NCBI GenBank assembly: GCA_000146045.2
Contig: BK006947.3
Location: 640,001 to 704,000 of the forward strand
Direction of reading: 5' to 3'
From: TPA_inf: Saccharomyces
Lineage: Eukaryota
DNA length: 64,000 nucleotides
The notes under the pieces were generated by a model. It was not told the origin of the DNA and did no database searches. It was given only the letters and a program-made list of their open reading frames with translations. The position numbers and the translations under genes were made by a program. Shown in pieces: positions 396 to 54,271 of this stretch (its first letter is position 1; each line of letters begins with the position of its first letter).

Positions 396-2381
396 ATGGG
401 CACACTGTTTCGAAGAAATGTCCAGAACCAAAAGAGTGATTCTGATGAAAACAATAAAGGGGGTTCTGTTCATAACAAGCGAGAGAGCAGAAACCACATT
501 CATCATCAACAGGGATTAGGCCATAAGAGAAGAAGGGGTATTAGTGGCAGTGCAAAAAGAAATGAGCGTGGCAAAGATTTCGACAGGAAAAGAGACGGGA
601 ACGGTAGAAAACGTTGGAGAGATTCCAGAAGACTGATTTTCATTCTTGGTGCATTCTTAGGTGTACTTTTGCCGTTTAGCTTTGGCGCTTATCATGTTCA
701 TAATAGCGATAGCGACTTGTTTGACAACTTTGTAAATTTTGATTCACTTAAAGTGTATTTGGATGATTGGAAAGATGTTCTCCCACAAGGTATAAGTTCG
801 TTTATTGATGATATTCAGGCTGGTAACTACTCCACATCTTCTTTAGATGATCTCAGTGAAAATTTTGCCGTTGGTAAACAACTCTTACGTGATTATAATA
901 TCGAGGCCAAACATCCTGTTGTAATGGTTCCTGGTGTCATTTCTACGGGAATTGAAAGCTGGGGAGTTATTGGAGACGATGAGTGCGATAGTTCTGCGCA
1001 TTTTCGTAAACGGCTGTGGGGAAGTTTTTACATGCTGAGAACAATGGTTATGGATAAAGTTTGTTGGTTGAAACATGTAATGTTAGATCCTGAAACAGGT
1101 CTGGACCCACCGAACTTTACGCTACGTGCAGCACAGGGCTTCGAATCAACTGATTATTTCATCGCAGGGTATTGGATTTGGAACAAAGTTTTCCAAAATC
1201 TGGGAGTAATTGGCTATGAACCCAATAAAATGACGAGTGCTGCGTATGATTGGAGGCTTGCATATTTAGATCTAGAAAGACGCGATAGGTACTTTACGAA
1301 GCTAAAGGAACAAATCGAACTGTTTCATCAATTGAGTGGTGAAAAAGTTTGTTTAATTGGACATTCTATGGGTTCTCAGATTATCTTTTACTTTATGAAA
1401 TGGGTCGAGGCTGAAGGCCCTCTTTACGGTAATGGTGGTCGTGGCTGGGTTAACGAACACATAGATTCATTCATTAATGCAGCAGGGACGCTTCTGGGCG
1501 CTCCAAAGGCAGTTCCAGCTCTAATTAGTGGTGAAATGAAAGATACCATTCAATTAAATACGTTAGCCATGTATGGTTTGGAAAAGTTCTTCTCAAGAAT
1601 TGAGAGAGTAAAAATGTTACAAACGTGGGGTGGTATACCATCAATGCTACCAAAGGGAGAAGAGGTCATTTGGGGGGATATGAAGTCATCTTCAGAGGAT
1701 GCATTGAATAACAACACTGACACATACGGCAATTTCATTCGATTTGAAAGGAATACGAGCGATGCTTTCAACAAAAATTTGACAATGAAAGACGCCATTA
1801 ACATGACATTATCGATATCACCTGAATGGCTCCAAAGAAGAGTACATGAGCAGTACTCGTTCGGCTATTCCAAGAATGAAGAAGAGTTAAGAAAAAATGA
1901 GCTACACCACAAGCACTGGTCGAATCCAATGGAAGTACCACTTCCAGAAGCTCCCCACATGAAAATCTATTGTATATACGGGGTGAACAACCCAACTGAA
2001 AGGGCATATGTATATAAGGAAGAGGATGACTCCTCTGCTCTGAATTTGACCATCGACTACGAAAGCAAGCAACCTGTATTCCTCACCGAGGGGGACGGAA
2101 CCGTTCCGCTCGTGGCGCATTCAATGTGTCACAAATGGGCCCAGGGTGCTTCACCGTACAACCCTGCCGGAATTAACGTTACTATTGTGGAAATGAAACA
2201 CCAGCCAGATCGATTTGATATACGTGGTGGAGCAAAAAGCGCCGAACACGTAGACATCCTCGGCAGCGCGGAGTTGAACGATTACATCTTGAAAATTGCA
2301 AGCGGTAATGGCGATCTCGTCGAGCCACGCCAATTGTCTAATTTGAGCCAGTGGGTTTCTCAGATGCCCTTCCCAATGTAA
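396..2381 (+). CDS. LRO1: Phospholipid:diacylglycerol acyltransferase (LCAT-like), 661 aa
   Basis: ORF track 661 aa; HSMGS lipase motif; N-terminal basic region plus TM segment; length matches Lro1. Confidence 0.95.
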   Translation: MGTLFRRNVQNQKSDSDENNKGGSVHNKRESRNHIHHQQGLGHKRRRGISGSAKRNERGKDFDRKRDGNGRKRWRDSRRLIFILGAFLGVLLPFSFGAYHVHNSDSDLFDNFVNFDSLKVYLDDWKDVLPQGISSFIDDIQAGNYSTSSLDDLSENFAVGKQLLRDYNIEAKHPVVMVPGVISTGIESWGVIGDDECDSSAHFRKRLWGSFYMLRTMVMDKVCWLKHVMLDPETGLDPPNFTLRAAQGFESTDYFIAGYWIWNKVFQNLGVIGYEPNKMTSAAYDWRLAYLDLERRDRYFTKLKEQIELFHQLSGEKVCLIGHSMGSQIIFYFMKWVEAEGPLYGNGGRGWVNEHIDSFINAAGTLLGAPKAVPALISGEMKDTIQLNTLAMYGLEKFFSRIERVKMLQTWGGIPSMLPKGEEVIWGDMKSSSEDALNNNTDTYGNFIRFERNTSDAFNKNLTMKDAINMTLSISPEWLQRRVHEQYSFGYSKNEEELRKNELHHKHWSNPMEVPLPEAPHMKIYCIYGVNNPTERAYVYKEEDDSSALNLTIDYESKQPVFLTEGDGTVPLVAHSMCHKWAQGASPYNPAGINVTIVEMKHQPDRFDIRGGAKSAEHVDILGSAELNDYILKIASGNGDLVEPRQLSNLSQWVSQMPFPM

Positions 2382-2434
2382 ATGACCGACATTGACTCAC
2401 TATCCATCCGTGTATTATTTCAAAGAGCGAAAAG

Positions 2435-2462
2435 AAGGCGCGTCGCGTCGACGCGCCTTTTT
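2435..2462. promoter_or_regulatory. Cluster of three MCB (MluI cell-cycle box) cores (2x CGCGT, 1x ACGCG) forming a perfect GC hairpin, ~230 bp upstream of NRM1
   Basis: AAGGCGCGTCGCGTCGACGCGCCTT is an inverted repeat (8-bp stem AAGGCGCG/CGCGCCTT) followed by TTTTT; NRM1 is an established MBF target. Confidence 0.6.
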
Positions 2463-2689
2463 AGGCTAGAAAATAAACAGAAAACAAAAACAAAAACAAA
2501 AAAAGGCGAAAAAACAAACGAAAAAACAAACGACAGTAGATAGAGGAGAAGGTTTTTGACAGGTTTGTGTAATTGGTTATTTGCTTTTATAGATTATATA
2601 TACACAAACTTAAAACACTGTTTTCTAAGTAGGCTGCGGAGAGGGCCAATTGCAGCAGCGACGTACGCATAGAGGAAAAACAACCGTTC

Positions 2690-3439
2690 ATGTCCATTAT
2701 GAAGCAGAGGCTACCACTGGGGGAGTTTTCCAGCTCGAAGATCAACAAACTGGCAATTGCCAATATTGCAGACGCTAGCGAGCCTAGAAACCATGGAGAA
2801 AACAACGTCGGGACTGTGTGTCTTCCCTCTATCAAGAGTTTGATGGTTAGTCCTGAAGTATACGAAAACACGAAGAGTCTTCCTGTTCCCCTAATGAGGA
2901 GCAGTGGCGGAGGTATGGCTTGTGCCAGTAAGTCCTCATGCCAGGATGGTATTAGTACGAAAACAACGTCTAGAGATTACTCTGAGCTTTCCAAGAAGTT
3001 GCAAATTCGTTTACAGTTCGCCTATTATAAATACAAGACTAAGCAAACAGACAAAAATTTCACAGACTTGAAATCAAAGCATAGCATTACGAGGCCTTCC
3101 AAAGTCGCGACTCACAGTAAATCAGAACCTTTAACTAGGAGAAGAAAATTAGTACTATCTCAGGGTCATTATAAAACCCCTGCTAGGTCTAAGATCAAAA
3201 CTCCATCTTCGATTTGCTCTCACGATAATACATCTTCCTTTACATCTTTCCGCGGTGTCAGCGAAAGCTCGAGCACTACCGCAGATATGAACGTCGCAGA
3301 TACCACCACACCAATACGCAACAACATAAACACAAAGCATTCAAACAGTCATAATCGCACATTGTATCAGAGACAAGAAACACCTACAAGCATCAAAGCC
3401 GCTAAGTCTTTAATTCATCTCTTTACAAGTAACCAATAA
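2690..3439 (+). CDS. NRM1: MBF corepressor Nrm1, 249 aa
   Basis: 249 aa Ser/Thr/Lys-rich ORF in expected position after LRO1; MCB cluster upstream. Confidence 0.85.
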   Translation: MSIMKQRLPLGEFSSSKINKLAIANIADASEPRNHGENNVGTVCLPSIKSLMVSPEVYENTKSLPVPLMRSSGGGMACASKSSCQDGISTKTTSRDYSELSKKLQIRLQFAYYKYKTKQTDKNFTDLKSKHSITRPSKVATHSKSEPLTRRRKLVLSQGHYKTPARSKIKTPSSICSHDNTSSFTSFRGVSESSSTTADMNVADTTTPIRNNINTKHSNSHNRTLYQRQETPTSIKAAKSLIHLFTSNQ

Positions 3440-47464: not shown

Positions 47465-47634
47465 TTTCAGAGTATTTATTTGCAATCTAAGCTTTGCCAC
47501 CGCTCCTCTTTCTCAATCTTTTCCTCTCCCTCCTCATCTCTCTCAGCCAAAACCGCGAATATATAAAAACAAGCAAGTCTCCCGTAGAACTTTTACACGA
47601 TGACCTTTCGAGATTTCACAAGGGGGATAAAGGA

Positions 47635-49998
47635 ATGCTGTCCGATACAATTGACACAAAGCAACAACAGCAACAGCTTCATGTCCTGTTCATAGACTCT
47701 TATGATTCATTCACCTACAATGTAGTGAGACTAATTGAACAACAAACTGATATCTCACCGGGAGTCAACGCCGTGCACGTGACGACGGTACATAGTGATA
47801 CGTTCCAATCTATGGATCAGCTATTGCCACTTTTGCCGCTTTTTGATGCTATCGTTGTTGGCCCAGGACCTGGGAATCCCAACAATGGTGCACAAGATAT
47901 GGGTATAATATCTGAGCTTTTCGAGAATGCCAATGGAAAGTTAGATGAAGTTCCAATATTGGGTATATGTCTTGGGTTCCAAGCAATGTGCTTGGCTCAA
48001 GGTGCTGATGTCAGTGAGCTAAATACTATCAAGCATGGGCAAGTGTATGAAATGCATTTAAACGATGCAGCCAGAGCTTGTGGCCTTTTTTCTGGTTATC
48101 CCGATACGTTCAAATCTACGAGGTACCATTCATTGCATGTCAATGCCGAAGGCATTGACACCCTTTTGCCCTTATGCACAACCGAAGATGAGAACGGTAT
48201 TCTTTTGATGAGTGCTCAAACGAAAAATAAGCCATGGTTTGGCGTACAGTACCACCCGGAGTCATGTTGTTCAGAATTGGGGGGGCTGTTAGTCAGTAAC
48301 TTTCTCAAGTTGAGTTTCATAAATAACGTGAAGACAGGAAGGTGGGAAAAGAAGAAACTTAATGGAGAGTTTTCCGATATCCTATCTCGATTGGATAGGA
48401 CTATTGATAGAGACCCCATATACAAGGTAAAAGAGAAATATCCGAAGGGCGAGGACACAACTTACGTTAAGCAGTTCGAGGTCTCTGAAGACCCGAAATT
48501 GACATTTGAAATTTGCAACATCATACGAGAAGAAAAATTTGTCATGTCATCTTCTGTGATTAGTGAAAATACGGGTGAATGGTCTATCATTGCTTTACCA
48601 AACTCCGCATCCCAGGTATTCACTCATTATGGAGCTATGAAAAAGACTACAGTTCATTATTGGCAAGATAGTGAAATTAGTTACACCTTGTTGAAAAAGT
48701 GTCTAGATGGTCAAGATTCGGATTTGCCTGGCTCCCTTGAGGTAATACATGAAGATAAATCCCAATTTTGGATCACTTTGGGTAAATTTATGGAGAATAA
48801 AATAATCGATAACCACAGAGAAATACCTTTTATTGGAGGTCTTGTTGGCATTTTAGGTTATGAAATAGGTCAGTACATTGCATGCGGCCGTTGCAATGAT
48901 GATGAGAATTCCCTTGTTCCCGACGCCAAACTAGTTTTTATCAACAATAGTATAGTCATTAATCACAAGCAAGGGAAGCTTTATTGTATTTCTCTGGATA
49001 ATACATTTCCAGTGGCATTAGAACAATCATTAAGGGACAGTTTTGTTAGAAAGAAGAATATTAAGCAATCCCTGTCCTGGCCCAAGTATCTTCCAGAGGA
49101 GATAGACTTCATTATAACTATGCCCGATAAACTTGACTACGCTAAGGCGTTTAAGAAATGTCAGGATTATATGCATAAGGGTGATTCTTATGAAATGTGT
49201 CTCACAACGCAAACCAAAGTTGTACCATCTGCGGTGATAGAACCCTGGAGGATTTTCCAGACCTTGGTACAAAGAAACCCGGCTCCATTTTCAAGTTTTT
49301 TTGAGTTTAAAGACATTATTCCCCGCCAAGATGAAACGCCTCCAGTTTTGTGCTTCTTAAGTACTTCTCCAGAAAGGTTTTTGAAGTGGGATGCAGACAC
49401 ATGCGAGCTACGTCCCATCAAGGGAACTGTGAAAAAAGGACCGCAAATGAACTTGGCAAAAGCCACACGAATCCTGAAGACACCAAAAGAATTTGGTGAG
49501 AACTTAATGATTTTGGACTTAATCAGAAATGACCTTTACGAGTTGGTTCCTGACGTTCGGGTGGAGGAGTTCATGTCCGTGCAAGAATATGCCACCGTTT
49601 ACCAACTCGTTAGCGTCGTAAAGGCACATGGATTGACCTCTGCCAGTAAGAAGACGAGATATTCAGGCATTGATGTCCTTAAACACTCGCTTCCTCCGGG
49701 ATCTATGACGGGAGCCCCCAAGAAGATTACTGTGCAATTATTGCAGGACAAGATAGAAAGCAAGCTAAACAAACATGTCAATGGTGGAGCACGTGGTGTT
49801 TACAGCGGTGTCACGGGATATTGGTCTGTGAATTCCAACGGAGATTGGTCTGTTAACATTAGATGTATGTATTCCTACAACGGCGGAACCAGCTGGCAAC
49901 TCGGTGCAGGGGGGGCCATAACAGTCTTAAGCACACTAGATGGCGAACTAGAGGAAATGTACAACAAGTTGGAGAGCAACTTACAAATTTTCATGTAG
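47635..49998 (+). CDS. ABZ1: para-Aminobenzoate (ADC) synthase, fused glutamine amidotransferase + chorismate-binding domains, 787 aa
   Basis: Track start 47494 is TTG; ATG at 47635 gives MLSDTIDTKQQQQQLHVLFIDSYDSFTYN..., 787 aa. Confidence 0.93.
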   Translation: MLSDTIDTKQQQQQLHVLFIDSYDSFTYNVVRLIEQQTDISPGVNAVHVTTVHSDTFQSMDQLLPLLPLFDAIVVGPGPGNPNNGAQDMGIISELFENANGKLDEVPILGICLGFQAMCLAQGADVSELNTIKHGQVYEMHLNDAARACGLFSGYPDTFKSTRYHSLHVNAEGIDTLLPLCTTEDENGILLMSAQTKNKPWFGVQYHPESCCSELGGLLVSNFLKLSFINNVKTGRWEKKKLNGEFSDILSRLDRTIDRDPIYKVKEKYPKGEDTTYVKQFEVSEDPKLTFEICNIIREEKFVMSSSVISENTGEWSIIALPNSASQVFTHYGAMKKTTVHYWQDSEISYTLLKKCLDGQDSDLPGSLEVIHEDKSQFWITLGKFMENKIIDNHREIPFIGGLVGILGYEIGQYIACGRCNDDENSLVPDAKLVFINNSIVINHKQGKLYCISLDNTFPVALEQSLRDSFVRKKNIKQSLSWPKYLPEEIDFIITMPDKLDYAKAFKKCQDYMHKGDSYEMCLTTQTKVVPSAVIEPWRIFQTLVQRNPAPFSSFFEFKDIIPRQDETPPVLCFLSTSPERFLKWDADTCELRPIKGTVKKGPQMNLAKATRILKTPKEFGENLMILDLIRNDLYELVPDVRVEEFMSVQEYATVYQLVSVVKAHGLTSASKKTRYSGIDVLKHSLPPGSMTGAPKKITVQLLQDKIESKLNKHVNGGARGVYSGVTGYWSVNSNGDWSVNIRCMYSYNGGTSWQLGAGGAITVLSTLDGELEEMYNKLESNLQIFM

Positions 49999-54047: not shown

Positions 54048-54238
54048 TGCGGATTACCGTTTTGAGGCAAGAAGATTGCTAGTCTTGTATCTACACTAGT
54101 TCCTTTGAACGCTAGTTAGCCCCTATGCTTATAGTATTTCTTGTCAATACAAGCGTCTGAAAATTCAGATCGCTTTATACGAGTAAGTATGCCAAATACA
54201 CCAAATATACCAAAGCATTGATTGCGTATACTGAGAAT

Positions 54239-54240
54239 AC

Positions 54241-54266
<26 letters not shown>
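54239..54266. repeat. (AT)14 microsatellite upstream of MRPS12 / downstream of ARC35
   Basis: Seen directly. Confidence 0.9.

Positions 54267-54271
<5 letters not shown>

Follow-up and report, generated by a model that had tools for sequence, protein, structure and literature searches.

Genes and sequence features of the LRO1-NRM1 locus

The window (i.e., the whole 64-kb stretch of DNA that was analysed, numbered from its first letter) includes two tandem genes, LRO1 and NRM1, separated by an intergenic region at 2382-2689. The NRM1 product matched, with 100% identity over 61% of the query, a 164-aa S. cerevisiae entry whose name is [quoted passage not shown] and protein matches revealed named Nrm1 orthologues throughout the Saccharomycetaceae. 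The identical 249-aa Nrm1 protein is encoded by many S. cerevisiae assemblies. The gene 3' of NRM1 is Med9/CSE2, and the order ATG3-like, LRO1, NRM1, CSE2, and PRP2-like is common to six other Saccharomyces species. A palindromic element overlaps the 3' end region of LRO1. Its hairpin begins 53 nt downstream of the LRO1 stop codon (2379-2381), and the NRM1 ATG (2690) lies 231 nt after the last stem base (2459), such that the element spans 231-255 bp upstream of NRM1. A sequence-only reading of the same DNA had placed it about 50 bp past the LRO1 stop and about 230 bp before the NRM1 ATG, in agreement with these measurements. The features of the locus are as follows.

396-2381, plus strand: LRO1 coding sequence, 661 aa, upstream tandem neighbour (Pfam LCAT, E = 1e-152)
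2435-2445, no strand: left arm of the perfect inverted repeat (AAGGCGCGTCG), unchanged in all seven Saccharomyces species
2439-2443, minus strand: ACGCG core 1, MCB-like, reads GACGCGCC, conserved
2444-2448, minus strand: ACGCG core 2, the middle core; in the flipped allele it moves to the plus strand at 2446-2450
2446-2448, no strand: spacer CGT, 3 nt, exactly inverted to ACG in some strains and species
2449-2459, no strand: right arm of the perfect inverted repeat (CGACGCGCCTT), with GACGCGCC invariant and positions 2449 and 2458 variable
2451-2455, plus strand: ACGCG core 3, MCB-like, reads GACGCGCC, conserved
2458-2462, plus strand: T5 run, the first two T residues being stem bases; it mirrors the A-run 5' of the left arm
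2463-2535, plus strand: A-rich tract separating the box cluster from the TATA region, with an AT skew reaching 1.0, nearly invariant
2471-2479, plus strand: AAATAAACA within the A-rich tract, unchanged across species (AAATAAACAAA in five of them)
2507-2530, plus strand: tandem 12-bp repeat, two copies of CGAAAAAACAAA, nearly invariant in all seven species
2586-2602, plus strand: TATA-like block TTTATAGATTATATATA, no change across species
2690-3439, plus strand: NRM1 coding sequence, 249 aa, with a Whi5-like motif; the gene very probably served by the element

The 25-mer AAGGCGCGTCGCGTCGACGCGCCTT located at 2435-2459 reads AAGGCGCGTCG-CGT-CGACGCGCCTT, i.e., a perfect inverted repeat whose 11-bp arms flank a 3-nt spacer; 2435-2445 pair with 2449-2459, and 8 of the 11 pairs are G-C. 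The sequence-only reading had described an 8-bp stem with a GTCGAC loop; the stem is in fact 11 bp long and the loop is CGT (2446-2448), with the GTCGAC motif sitting off-centre at 2447-2452. The T5 run said to follow the hairpin is present at 2458-2462, but two of its T residues are paired and only TTT lies beyond the stem. Allowing one G.T pair extends the stem to 14 pairs (arms 2432-2445 and 2449-2462). The RNA fold of the 48-nt context reached -25.8 kcal/mol (z = -3.8 versus dinucleotide shuffles), and the single-stranded DNA fold of the hairpin context reached -16.9 kcal/mol (z = -4.25). Local GC content is 0.54 at the palindrome versus 0.22-0.36 in the flanks, as the earlier description of a GC-rich element in AT-rich intergenic DNA had it. 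Of 200 dinucleotide-preserving shuffles of the window, one produced a perfect stem as long (11 bp or more) and as rich in G-C pairs (8 or more). The palindrome is the longest perfect short-loop inverted repeat of the window except for a (TA)n run and one AT-richer repeat, and it is by far the most G+C-rich of the window's long perfect inverted repeats; it is thus a genuine feature, beyond chance. Elsewhere in the window, a perfect inverted repeat with 11-bp arms and a 10-nt spacer (TCCGTTTCTTC...GAAGAAACGGA) occurs at 36537-36568 within an open reading frame (ORF) at 36177-37103, and a (TA)n palindrome occurs at 54237-54270.

Three MluI-box cores had been recognized in this element from the sequence alone, and our coordinates confirm all of them, at 2439-2443 and 2444-2448 on the minus strand and at 2451-2455 on the plus strand. 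They are packed in 17 bp (2439-2455), the sole such cluster among the 27 cores in 64 kb, and three ACGCG motifs within 17 bp arose in 4 of 200 dinucleotide-preserving shuffles of the window. Each falls short of the full ACGCGT hexamer (they read ACGCGC, ACGCGA, and ACGCGC), and we therefore term the sites "MCB-like." The outer two sites are identical and in inverted orientation, with GACGCGCCTT read outward on each strand. No conserved SCB (CRCGAAA) sites were detected in the LRO1-NRM1 intergenic region. Xbp1-like TCGA and Zn-cluster CGG/CCG readings were rejected by eye, as these motifs were not conserved or were absent. A literature search with the string CGCGACGCG (a fission-yeast double-MCB motif) matched primer sequences alone. 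The palindromic cluster may resemble the tandem MCBs of S. pombe, a likeness to which we give no weight as evidence. As a separate observation, the sole intergenic full ACGCGT of the window lies at 35979-35984, 198 bp 5' of a 308-aa ORF (36177-37103); the remaining two (10837 and 31698) fall within long ORFs.

The box cluster lies approximately 130-165 bp 5' of the TATA-like block, a typical distance for an upstream activating sequence. The A-rich tract between them (2463-2535) is probably a nucleosome-depleting and/or 3'-end-forming sequence. Within this tract, AAATAAACA (2471-2479) resembles a forkhead/Hcm1-type site and also contains a putative AATAAA-type poly(A) positioning element for LRO1 (2472-2477). 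At the tandem repeat (2507-2530), most species read GACGAAAA and AACGAAAA, which match the SCB CACGAAAA at 7 of 8 positions; by this resemblance, the repeats may be degenerate Swi4 sites. Two S. cerevisiae assemblies (L020 and L021) carry a 6-bp insertion (AAAACA) at approximately 2481, a repeat-length polymorphism in the A-rich tract. The supplements of PMC7822557 contained no transcription start or termination site coordinates for YNR008W/YNR009W.

Conservation of the cores in Saccharomyces and in more distant yeasts

Across seven Saccharomyces species, the LRO1-NRM1 intergenic region (2382-2689) showed 85% mean column identity, compared with 62% for the NRM1-CSE2 intergenic region of the same loci. 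All three ACGCG cores are kept in all seven species, and AAGGCGCGTCG and GACGCGCC are unchanged across them. Substitutions are confined to the non-core position 2449, which lies between cores and is C, G, or A depending on the species, to the outer stem position 2458, and to the flanks. At 2458, T is replaced by G in S. uvarum and S. eubayanus with the loss of a stem pair that is not compensated, leaving only 8 perfect pairs in these two species. The A-run 5' of the left arm differs in length between species, and A/T extension lengthens the arms to 13-14 bp in S. kudriavzevii, S. arboricola, and the S. paradoxus-like locus. Among the 14 pairs, none was altered on both sides in the manner of a compensatory change (11 were invariant, and 3 showed breaks or wobbles), a count based on eight sequences and thus of low power. 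The sequence-only reading had proposed conservation of the palindrome in the sensu stricto species as a check; the cores are conserved in all seven, with one stem pair missing in S. uvarum and S. eubayanus. Long invariant blocks also occur beyond the box cluster, namely, TTGACAGGTTTGTGT (2555-2569) and CAATTGCAGCAG (2647-2658).

Outside Saccharomyces, MCB pairs or clusters were found 5' of NRM1 in three of five more distant orthologues and a single core in the other two; the distant clusters lie at -205 to -317 and form no palindrome. In Naumovozyma castellii, two ACGCGT hexamers and CGCGTCGCGT are located at -232 to -317 with no hairpin, and the upstream neighbour of NRM1 is a divergent DNA-primase large-subunit gene rather than LRO1. 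The region shared by these two genes (L008:2089-2500, 412 bp) contains the two ACGCGT hexamers plus CGCGTCGCGT, and the cluster may serve two G1/S genes, NRM1 and the divergent primase gene. Kazachstania africana carries ACGCGACGCG plus CGCGT and Torulaspora globosa carries ACGCGAAGTCGCGT 5' of NRM1, with one core each in Zygosaccharomyces rouxii and N. glabratus. Distant orthologues retain ACGCG cores, mostly without CGCGC. Overall, the motif cluster goes with NRM1, and constraint appears to act on the cores and not on pairing.

Inversion of the spacer

Ten S. cerevisiae assemblies with the same Nrm1 protein sequence were compared. In two of the ten, the spacer (2446-2448) reads ACG in place of CGT, i.e., its exact reverse complement, with the arms unchanged. 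The carriers are L015 (GCA_000976125.2) and L018 (GCA_030267605.1), each with the flip at 1257-1259. They share 2670 T>G and differ from each other at 3151, 3202, and 3259, a pattern consistent with recurrent flips as well as with a single origin and later recombination. The flipped spacer is also present in an S. paradoxus-like contig, whose LRO1 shows 91% nucleotide identity, and in S. mikatae (L001 and L003). The reference orientation occurs in S. kudriavzevii, S. arboricola, S. uvarum, and S. eubayanus, with G or A at 2449. Scanning metagenomes for the palindrome yielded only two S. cerevisiae-like contigs, both in the reference orientation. On the accepted Saccharomyces species tree, this distribution implies either a polymorphism of long standing or no fewer than two inversions. 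An assembly artefact was judged unlikely as the source of the flip and was rejected: k-mers of at least 13 nt reaching from the flank into the spacer discriminate the two orientations, and the flip is found in two independent S. cerevisiae assemblies with partly different haplotypes, as well as in two other species.

Inversion of inverted-repeat spacers by DNA-polymerase template switching has been described in S. cerevisiae (PMC8604942), and promoter cases of such inversion have also been reported (PMC13100816). [quoted passage not shown] As in the cases of PMC8604942, the spacer of one allele is the exact reverse complement of that of the other, and as in the SPO75 and "YBZ1" cases, the spacer is polymorphic within a species and homoplasious between species. 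Unlike the cases of PMC8604942, the NRM1 flip lies in a promoter cluster of transcription factor sites and not in coding sequence, and unlike template-switch events in coding sequence, it keeps the number of ACGCG cores and mirrors the site. The texts of PMC8604942 and PMC13100816 contain no mention of the NRM1 palindrome. One of the listed repeats does fall in the window: a perfect inverted repeat with 10-bp arms (TGTCAATGCC-gaa-GGCATTGACA) occurs at 48138-48160 in an 834-aa ORF (47494-49998), and Table 2 of PMC8604942 lists this sequence ("YBZ1") as having a recurrent GAA/TTC flip among S. cerevisiae strains.

A flip of this kind is the mark that template switching is known to leave at inverted repeats. 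With palindromic arms, inverting the spacer amounts to replacing the 25-mer by its reverse complement; all three cores are kept and the site is mirrored, which presumably explains why the change is tolerated. The inversion shows hairpin-like behaviour of the repeat in DNA metabolism and mutation; no structural function follows from this.

A candidate G1/S upstream activating sequence and its alternatives

The literature places NRM1 among the G1/S genes. Nrm1 is itself described as a G1/S target (PMC3617184), and MBF is reported to up-regulate NRM1 transcription (PMC3128521), both as cited from de Bruin 2006. Ferrezuelo et al. (PMC2911115) counted NRM1 as a gene for which the literature strongly supports regulation by MBF, but their integrated analysis assigned it as an SBF target. 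Hendler et al. (PMC5448814) found NRM1 to be down-regulated in swi4-delta and grouped its promoter under "MCB-like motif," with a Swi4 ChIP(-qPCR) signal weaker than that of SCB promoters. YNR009W belongs to a G1 co-expression group with CDC21 and RFA2 (PMC2258198), and a Rad53 ChIP signal has been recorded at the NRM1 promoter (PMC9797190). The sequence-only view of NRM1 as an MBF target accordingly holds as regards G1/S regulation by MBF (PMC3617184 and PMC3128521) but is too narrow in naming MBF alone, since SBF/Swi4 is also implicated (PMC2911115 and PMC5448814). The literature searched (de Bruin 2006 lies outside it) contained no base-resolution occupancy or mutagenesis data for 2435-2459.

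We consider it highly probable that 2435-2459 is the G1/S upstream activating sequence of NRM1, composed of three MCB-like cores; it is our inference that the factors bind within this 25-bp stretch and that regulation requires it. The anatomy of the element, its statistics, the conservation of its cores, its position relative to the TATA-like block and ATG, and the spacer inversion were established here, and the G1/S periodicity, MBF dependence, and promoter-level Swi4 ChIP come from the literature. As for MCB-type elements in general, the cores are present, they occupy a promoter position 5' of the TATA-like block, and the motifs are conserved in orthologous promoters. The original proposal of a compact MCB array driving NRM1, with a coincidental resemblance to a terminator, is upheld by the cores in all seven species, the MCBs of distant orthologues, and the published regulation. 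Because NRM1 has already been published as a G1/S MBF target with an MCB-like promoter, an NRM1 upstream activating sequence is the best explanation and one of a kind already known. Like the MCB clusters of RNR1, CDC21, and POL1, the NRM1 promoter has multiple ACGCG motifs a few hundred base pairs 5' of the ATG, and like other budding-yeast MCB targets, NRM1 is G1/S periodic according to the literature and has motifs conserved in related yeasts. It stands with MCD1 and ELO1 among the "MCB-like" SBF targets of PMC5448814, in which the NRM1 promoter was tested by Swi4 ChIP. Unlike canonical MCB clusters, the NRM1 cluster has no ACGCGT hexamer; its cores overlap into a perfect palindrome with 11-bp arms, an arrangement of which we found no description; and it lies only 53 nt beyond the stop codon of the upstream gene. 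Several points weigh against the MCB reading: all three cores are without the full ACGCGT, the MBF/SBF assignment is disputed (PMC2911115 versus de Bruin 2006, the latter as cited by others), and the outer A/T and GG/CC positions of the arms are conserved beyond the core, where a simple ACGCG model fails.

In the mechanism that we propose, the double-stranded cores would be occupied in G1 by MBF (Mbp1-Swi6) and less strongly by SBF (Swi4-Swi6), and at Start the bound factors would activate NRM1 from the TATA region approximately 140 bp downstream. The conserved A-rich tract in between (2463-2535) probably holds the region nucleosome-poor. Nrm1 protein would then bind MBF and shut off MBF targets, resulting in negative feedback. 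The hairpin potential would be a by-product of two identical extended sites arranged in inverted orientation; selection on the individual sites and/or homogenisation through template switching probably keeps the arms identical.

The alternative that survives best, although we regard it as unlikely, is a chromatin element in which GCGCG/CGCGC pentamers recruit RSC via Rsc3/Rsc30 and, together with the poly(A) tracts, form a nucleosome-depleted region common to the LRO1 3' end and the NRM1 promoter, in addition to or instead of MBF/SBF binding. Rsc3/Rsc30 are reported to recognise CGCGCG-type motifs and poly(A/T) to stimulate RSC (PMC7822557, with reference to Badis 2008 and other work). The pentamers GCGCG (2438-2442) and CGCGC (2452-2456) are conserved in all seven species, with approximately 70 bp of conserved A-tracts directly downstream, and in this the element is like known pairs of Rsc3/Rsc30 motifs and poly(dA:dT), the NRM1 pentamers adjoining long conserved A-tracts. 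Unlike Rsc3/Rsc30 sites, however, it has only 5-mers and no full CGCGCG hexamer, and its distant conservation follows ACGCG, mostly not CGCGC. The middle core (TCGCGT), which is no Rsc3-type motif, is equally conserved, and the literature links the promoter to Swi4/MBF and not to Rsc3. A contribution of RSC alongside MBF/SBF binding is possible, the two being non-exclusive.

An RNA-level role is very improbable. In this reading, the hairpin would act in the LRO1 3' UTR or in read-through transcripts as a terminator-like or stability/processing structure, a eukaryotic counterpart of the intrinsic terminator, and the sense-strand position 53 nt past the LRO1 stop, together with the strong RNA hairpin (-25.8 kcal/mol; z = -3.8), would suit it. 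Downstream of the hairpin come an A-rich element of AATAAA type (2472-2477) and Y(A)n sites, so the LRO1 poly(A) site may well lie beyond it. Rfam searches of 2421-2489 returned suhB/mmgR at 25.4 bits (gathering cutoff, 41) and the terminator end of Atu_C9 at 18.8 bits (gathering cutoff, 40). These weak matches to bacterial sRNA terminator hairpins might be counted in favour of an RNA element, but the scores are far under the gathering cutoffs, and we rejected them as chance matches arising from the GC hairpin; they do illustrate how palindromes of this sort imitate terminators. The locus is a yeast nuclear Pol II locus, only three U residues extend beyond the stem, and the plus strand fails the terminator scan. 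No compensatory changes were seen, the three variable pairs being breaks or wobbles, with a pair lost in S. uvarum and S. eubayanus. In N. castellii, moreover, the MCB cluster stays with NRM1 and not with LRO1, and there is no hairpin. The loop kind recognised by yeast RNase III is an AGNN tetraloop, and the loop here is not of that kind. Apart from the fold energy, nothing speaks for an RNA role.

Still less probable is a functional DNA cruciform, i.e., an extruded structure that would be recognised or regulate NRM1/LRO1 in place of the duplex motifs. Perfect arms (11 bp at this locus, 13-14 bp in three further species), a single-stranded DNA hairpin of -16.9 kcal/mol, and an exact spacer inversion within and between species, by which the arms interact during DNA metabolism, are compatible with such a structure. 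For a cruciform to extrude at physiological supercoiling, however, 11-bp arms are short, and in S. uvarum and S. eubayanus no more than 8 pairs are perfect. Distant orthologues have MCBs but no palindrome, no covariation was seen among the eight sequences, and template switching accounts for the inversion without a stable cruciform (PMC8604942). The additional cruciform or RNA role envisaged in the sequence-only reading thus finds no support in covariation, although the repeat does join in hairpin/template-switch events at the DNA level, as seen in the spacer inversion.

A rho-independent terminator, the architecture first read into the sequence, can be dismissed: the host is a Saccharomyces nuclear Pol II locus (ATG3-LRO1-NRM1-CSE2-PRP2), only TTT and then AGG follow the stem, and a simple consensus terminator scan made no call on the plus strand, listing the minus strand only. 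The element is like a bacterial intrinsic terminator in having a G+C-rich perfect stem-loop and T residues just 3' of a stop codon, and unlike one in its eukaryotic genome, its Pol II genes, and the three unpaired T residues after the stem. To our knowledge, bacterial intrinsic termination by a hairpin and U-tract is not a mechanism operating at yeast nuclear Pol II loci. For genome scans, this case indicates that a textbook-looking "intrinsic terminator" in eukaryotic intergenic DNA can be a palindromic cluster of transcription factor sites.

Returning to the MCB-like upstream activating sequence, the element is of an already-known kind at an already-known target, and the logic of MBF/SBF-NRM1 feedback is established; nothing new on cell-cycle control follows from it. 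New here are only the precise anatomy of the palindrome, the depth of its conservation, and the polymorphic inversion of its spacer. What is added is a precise map of the conserved NRM1 promoter (box cluster, A-tracts, and TATA block). A more speculative idea, to which we give little credence, is that the triple box is a natural "flip-flop" element in which recurrent template switching homogenises the outer sites, as concerted evolution of a transcription factor site pair, and inverts the middle one, the two orientations differing functionally. If this were true, MBF/SBF occupancy, or when and how strongly NRM1 is expressed, could differ measurably between the segregating CGT and ACG orientations, and the flip-flop would amount to heritable variation in the strength of G1/S negative feedback. 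The NRM1 spacer flip exemplifies template-switch mutation inside a promoter element, and the CGT/ACG pair provides ready-made alleles for asking whether orientation matters within an MCB cluster.
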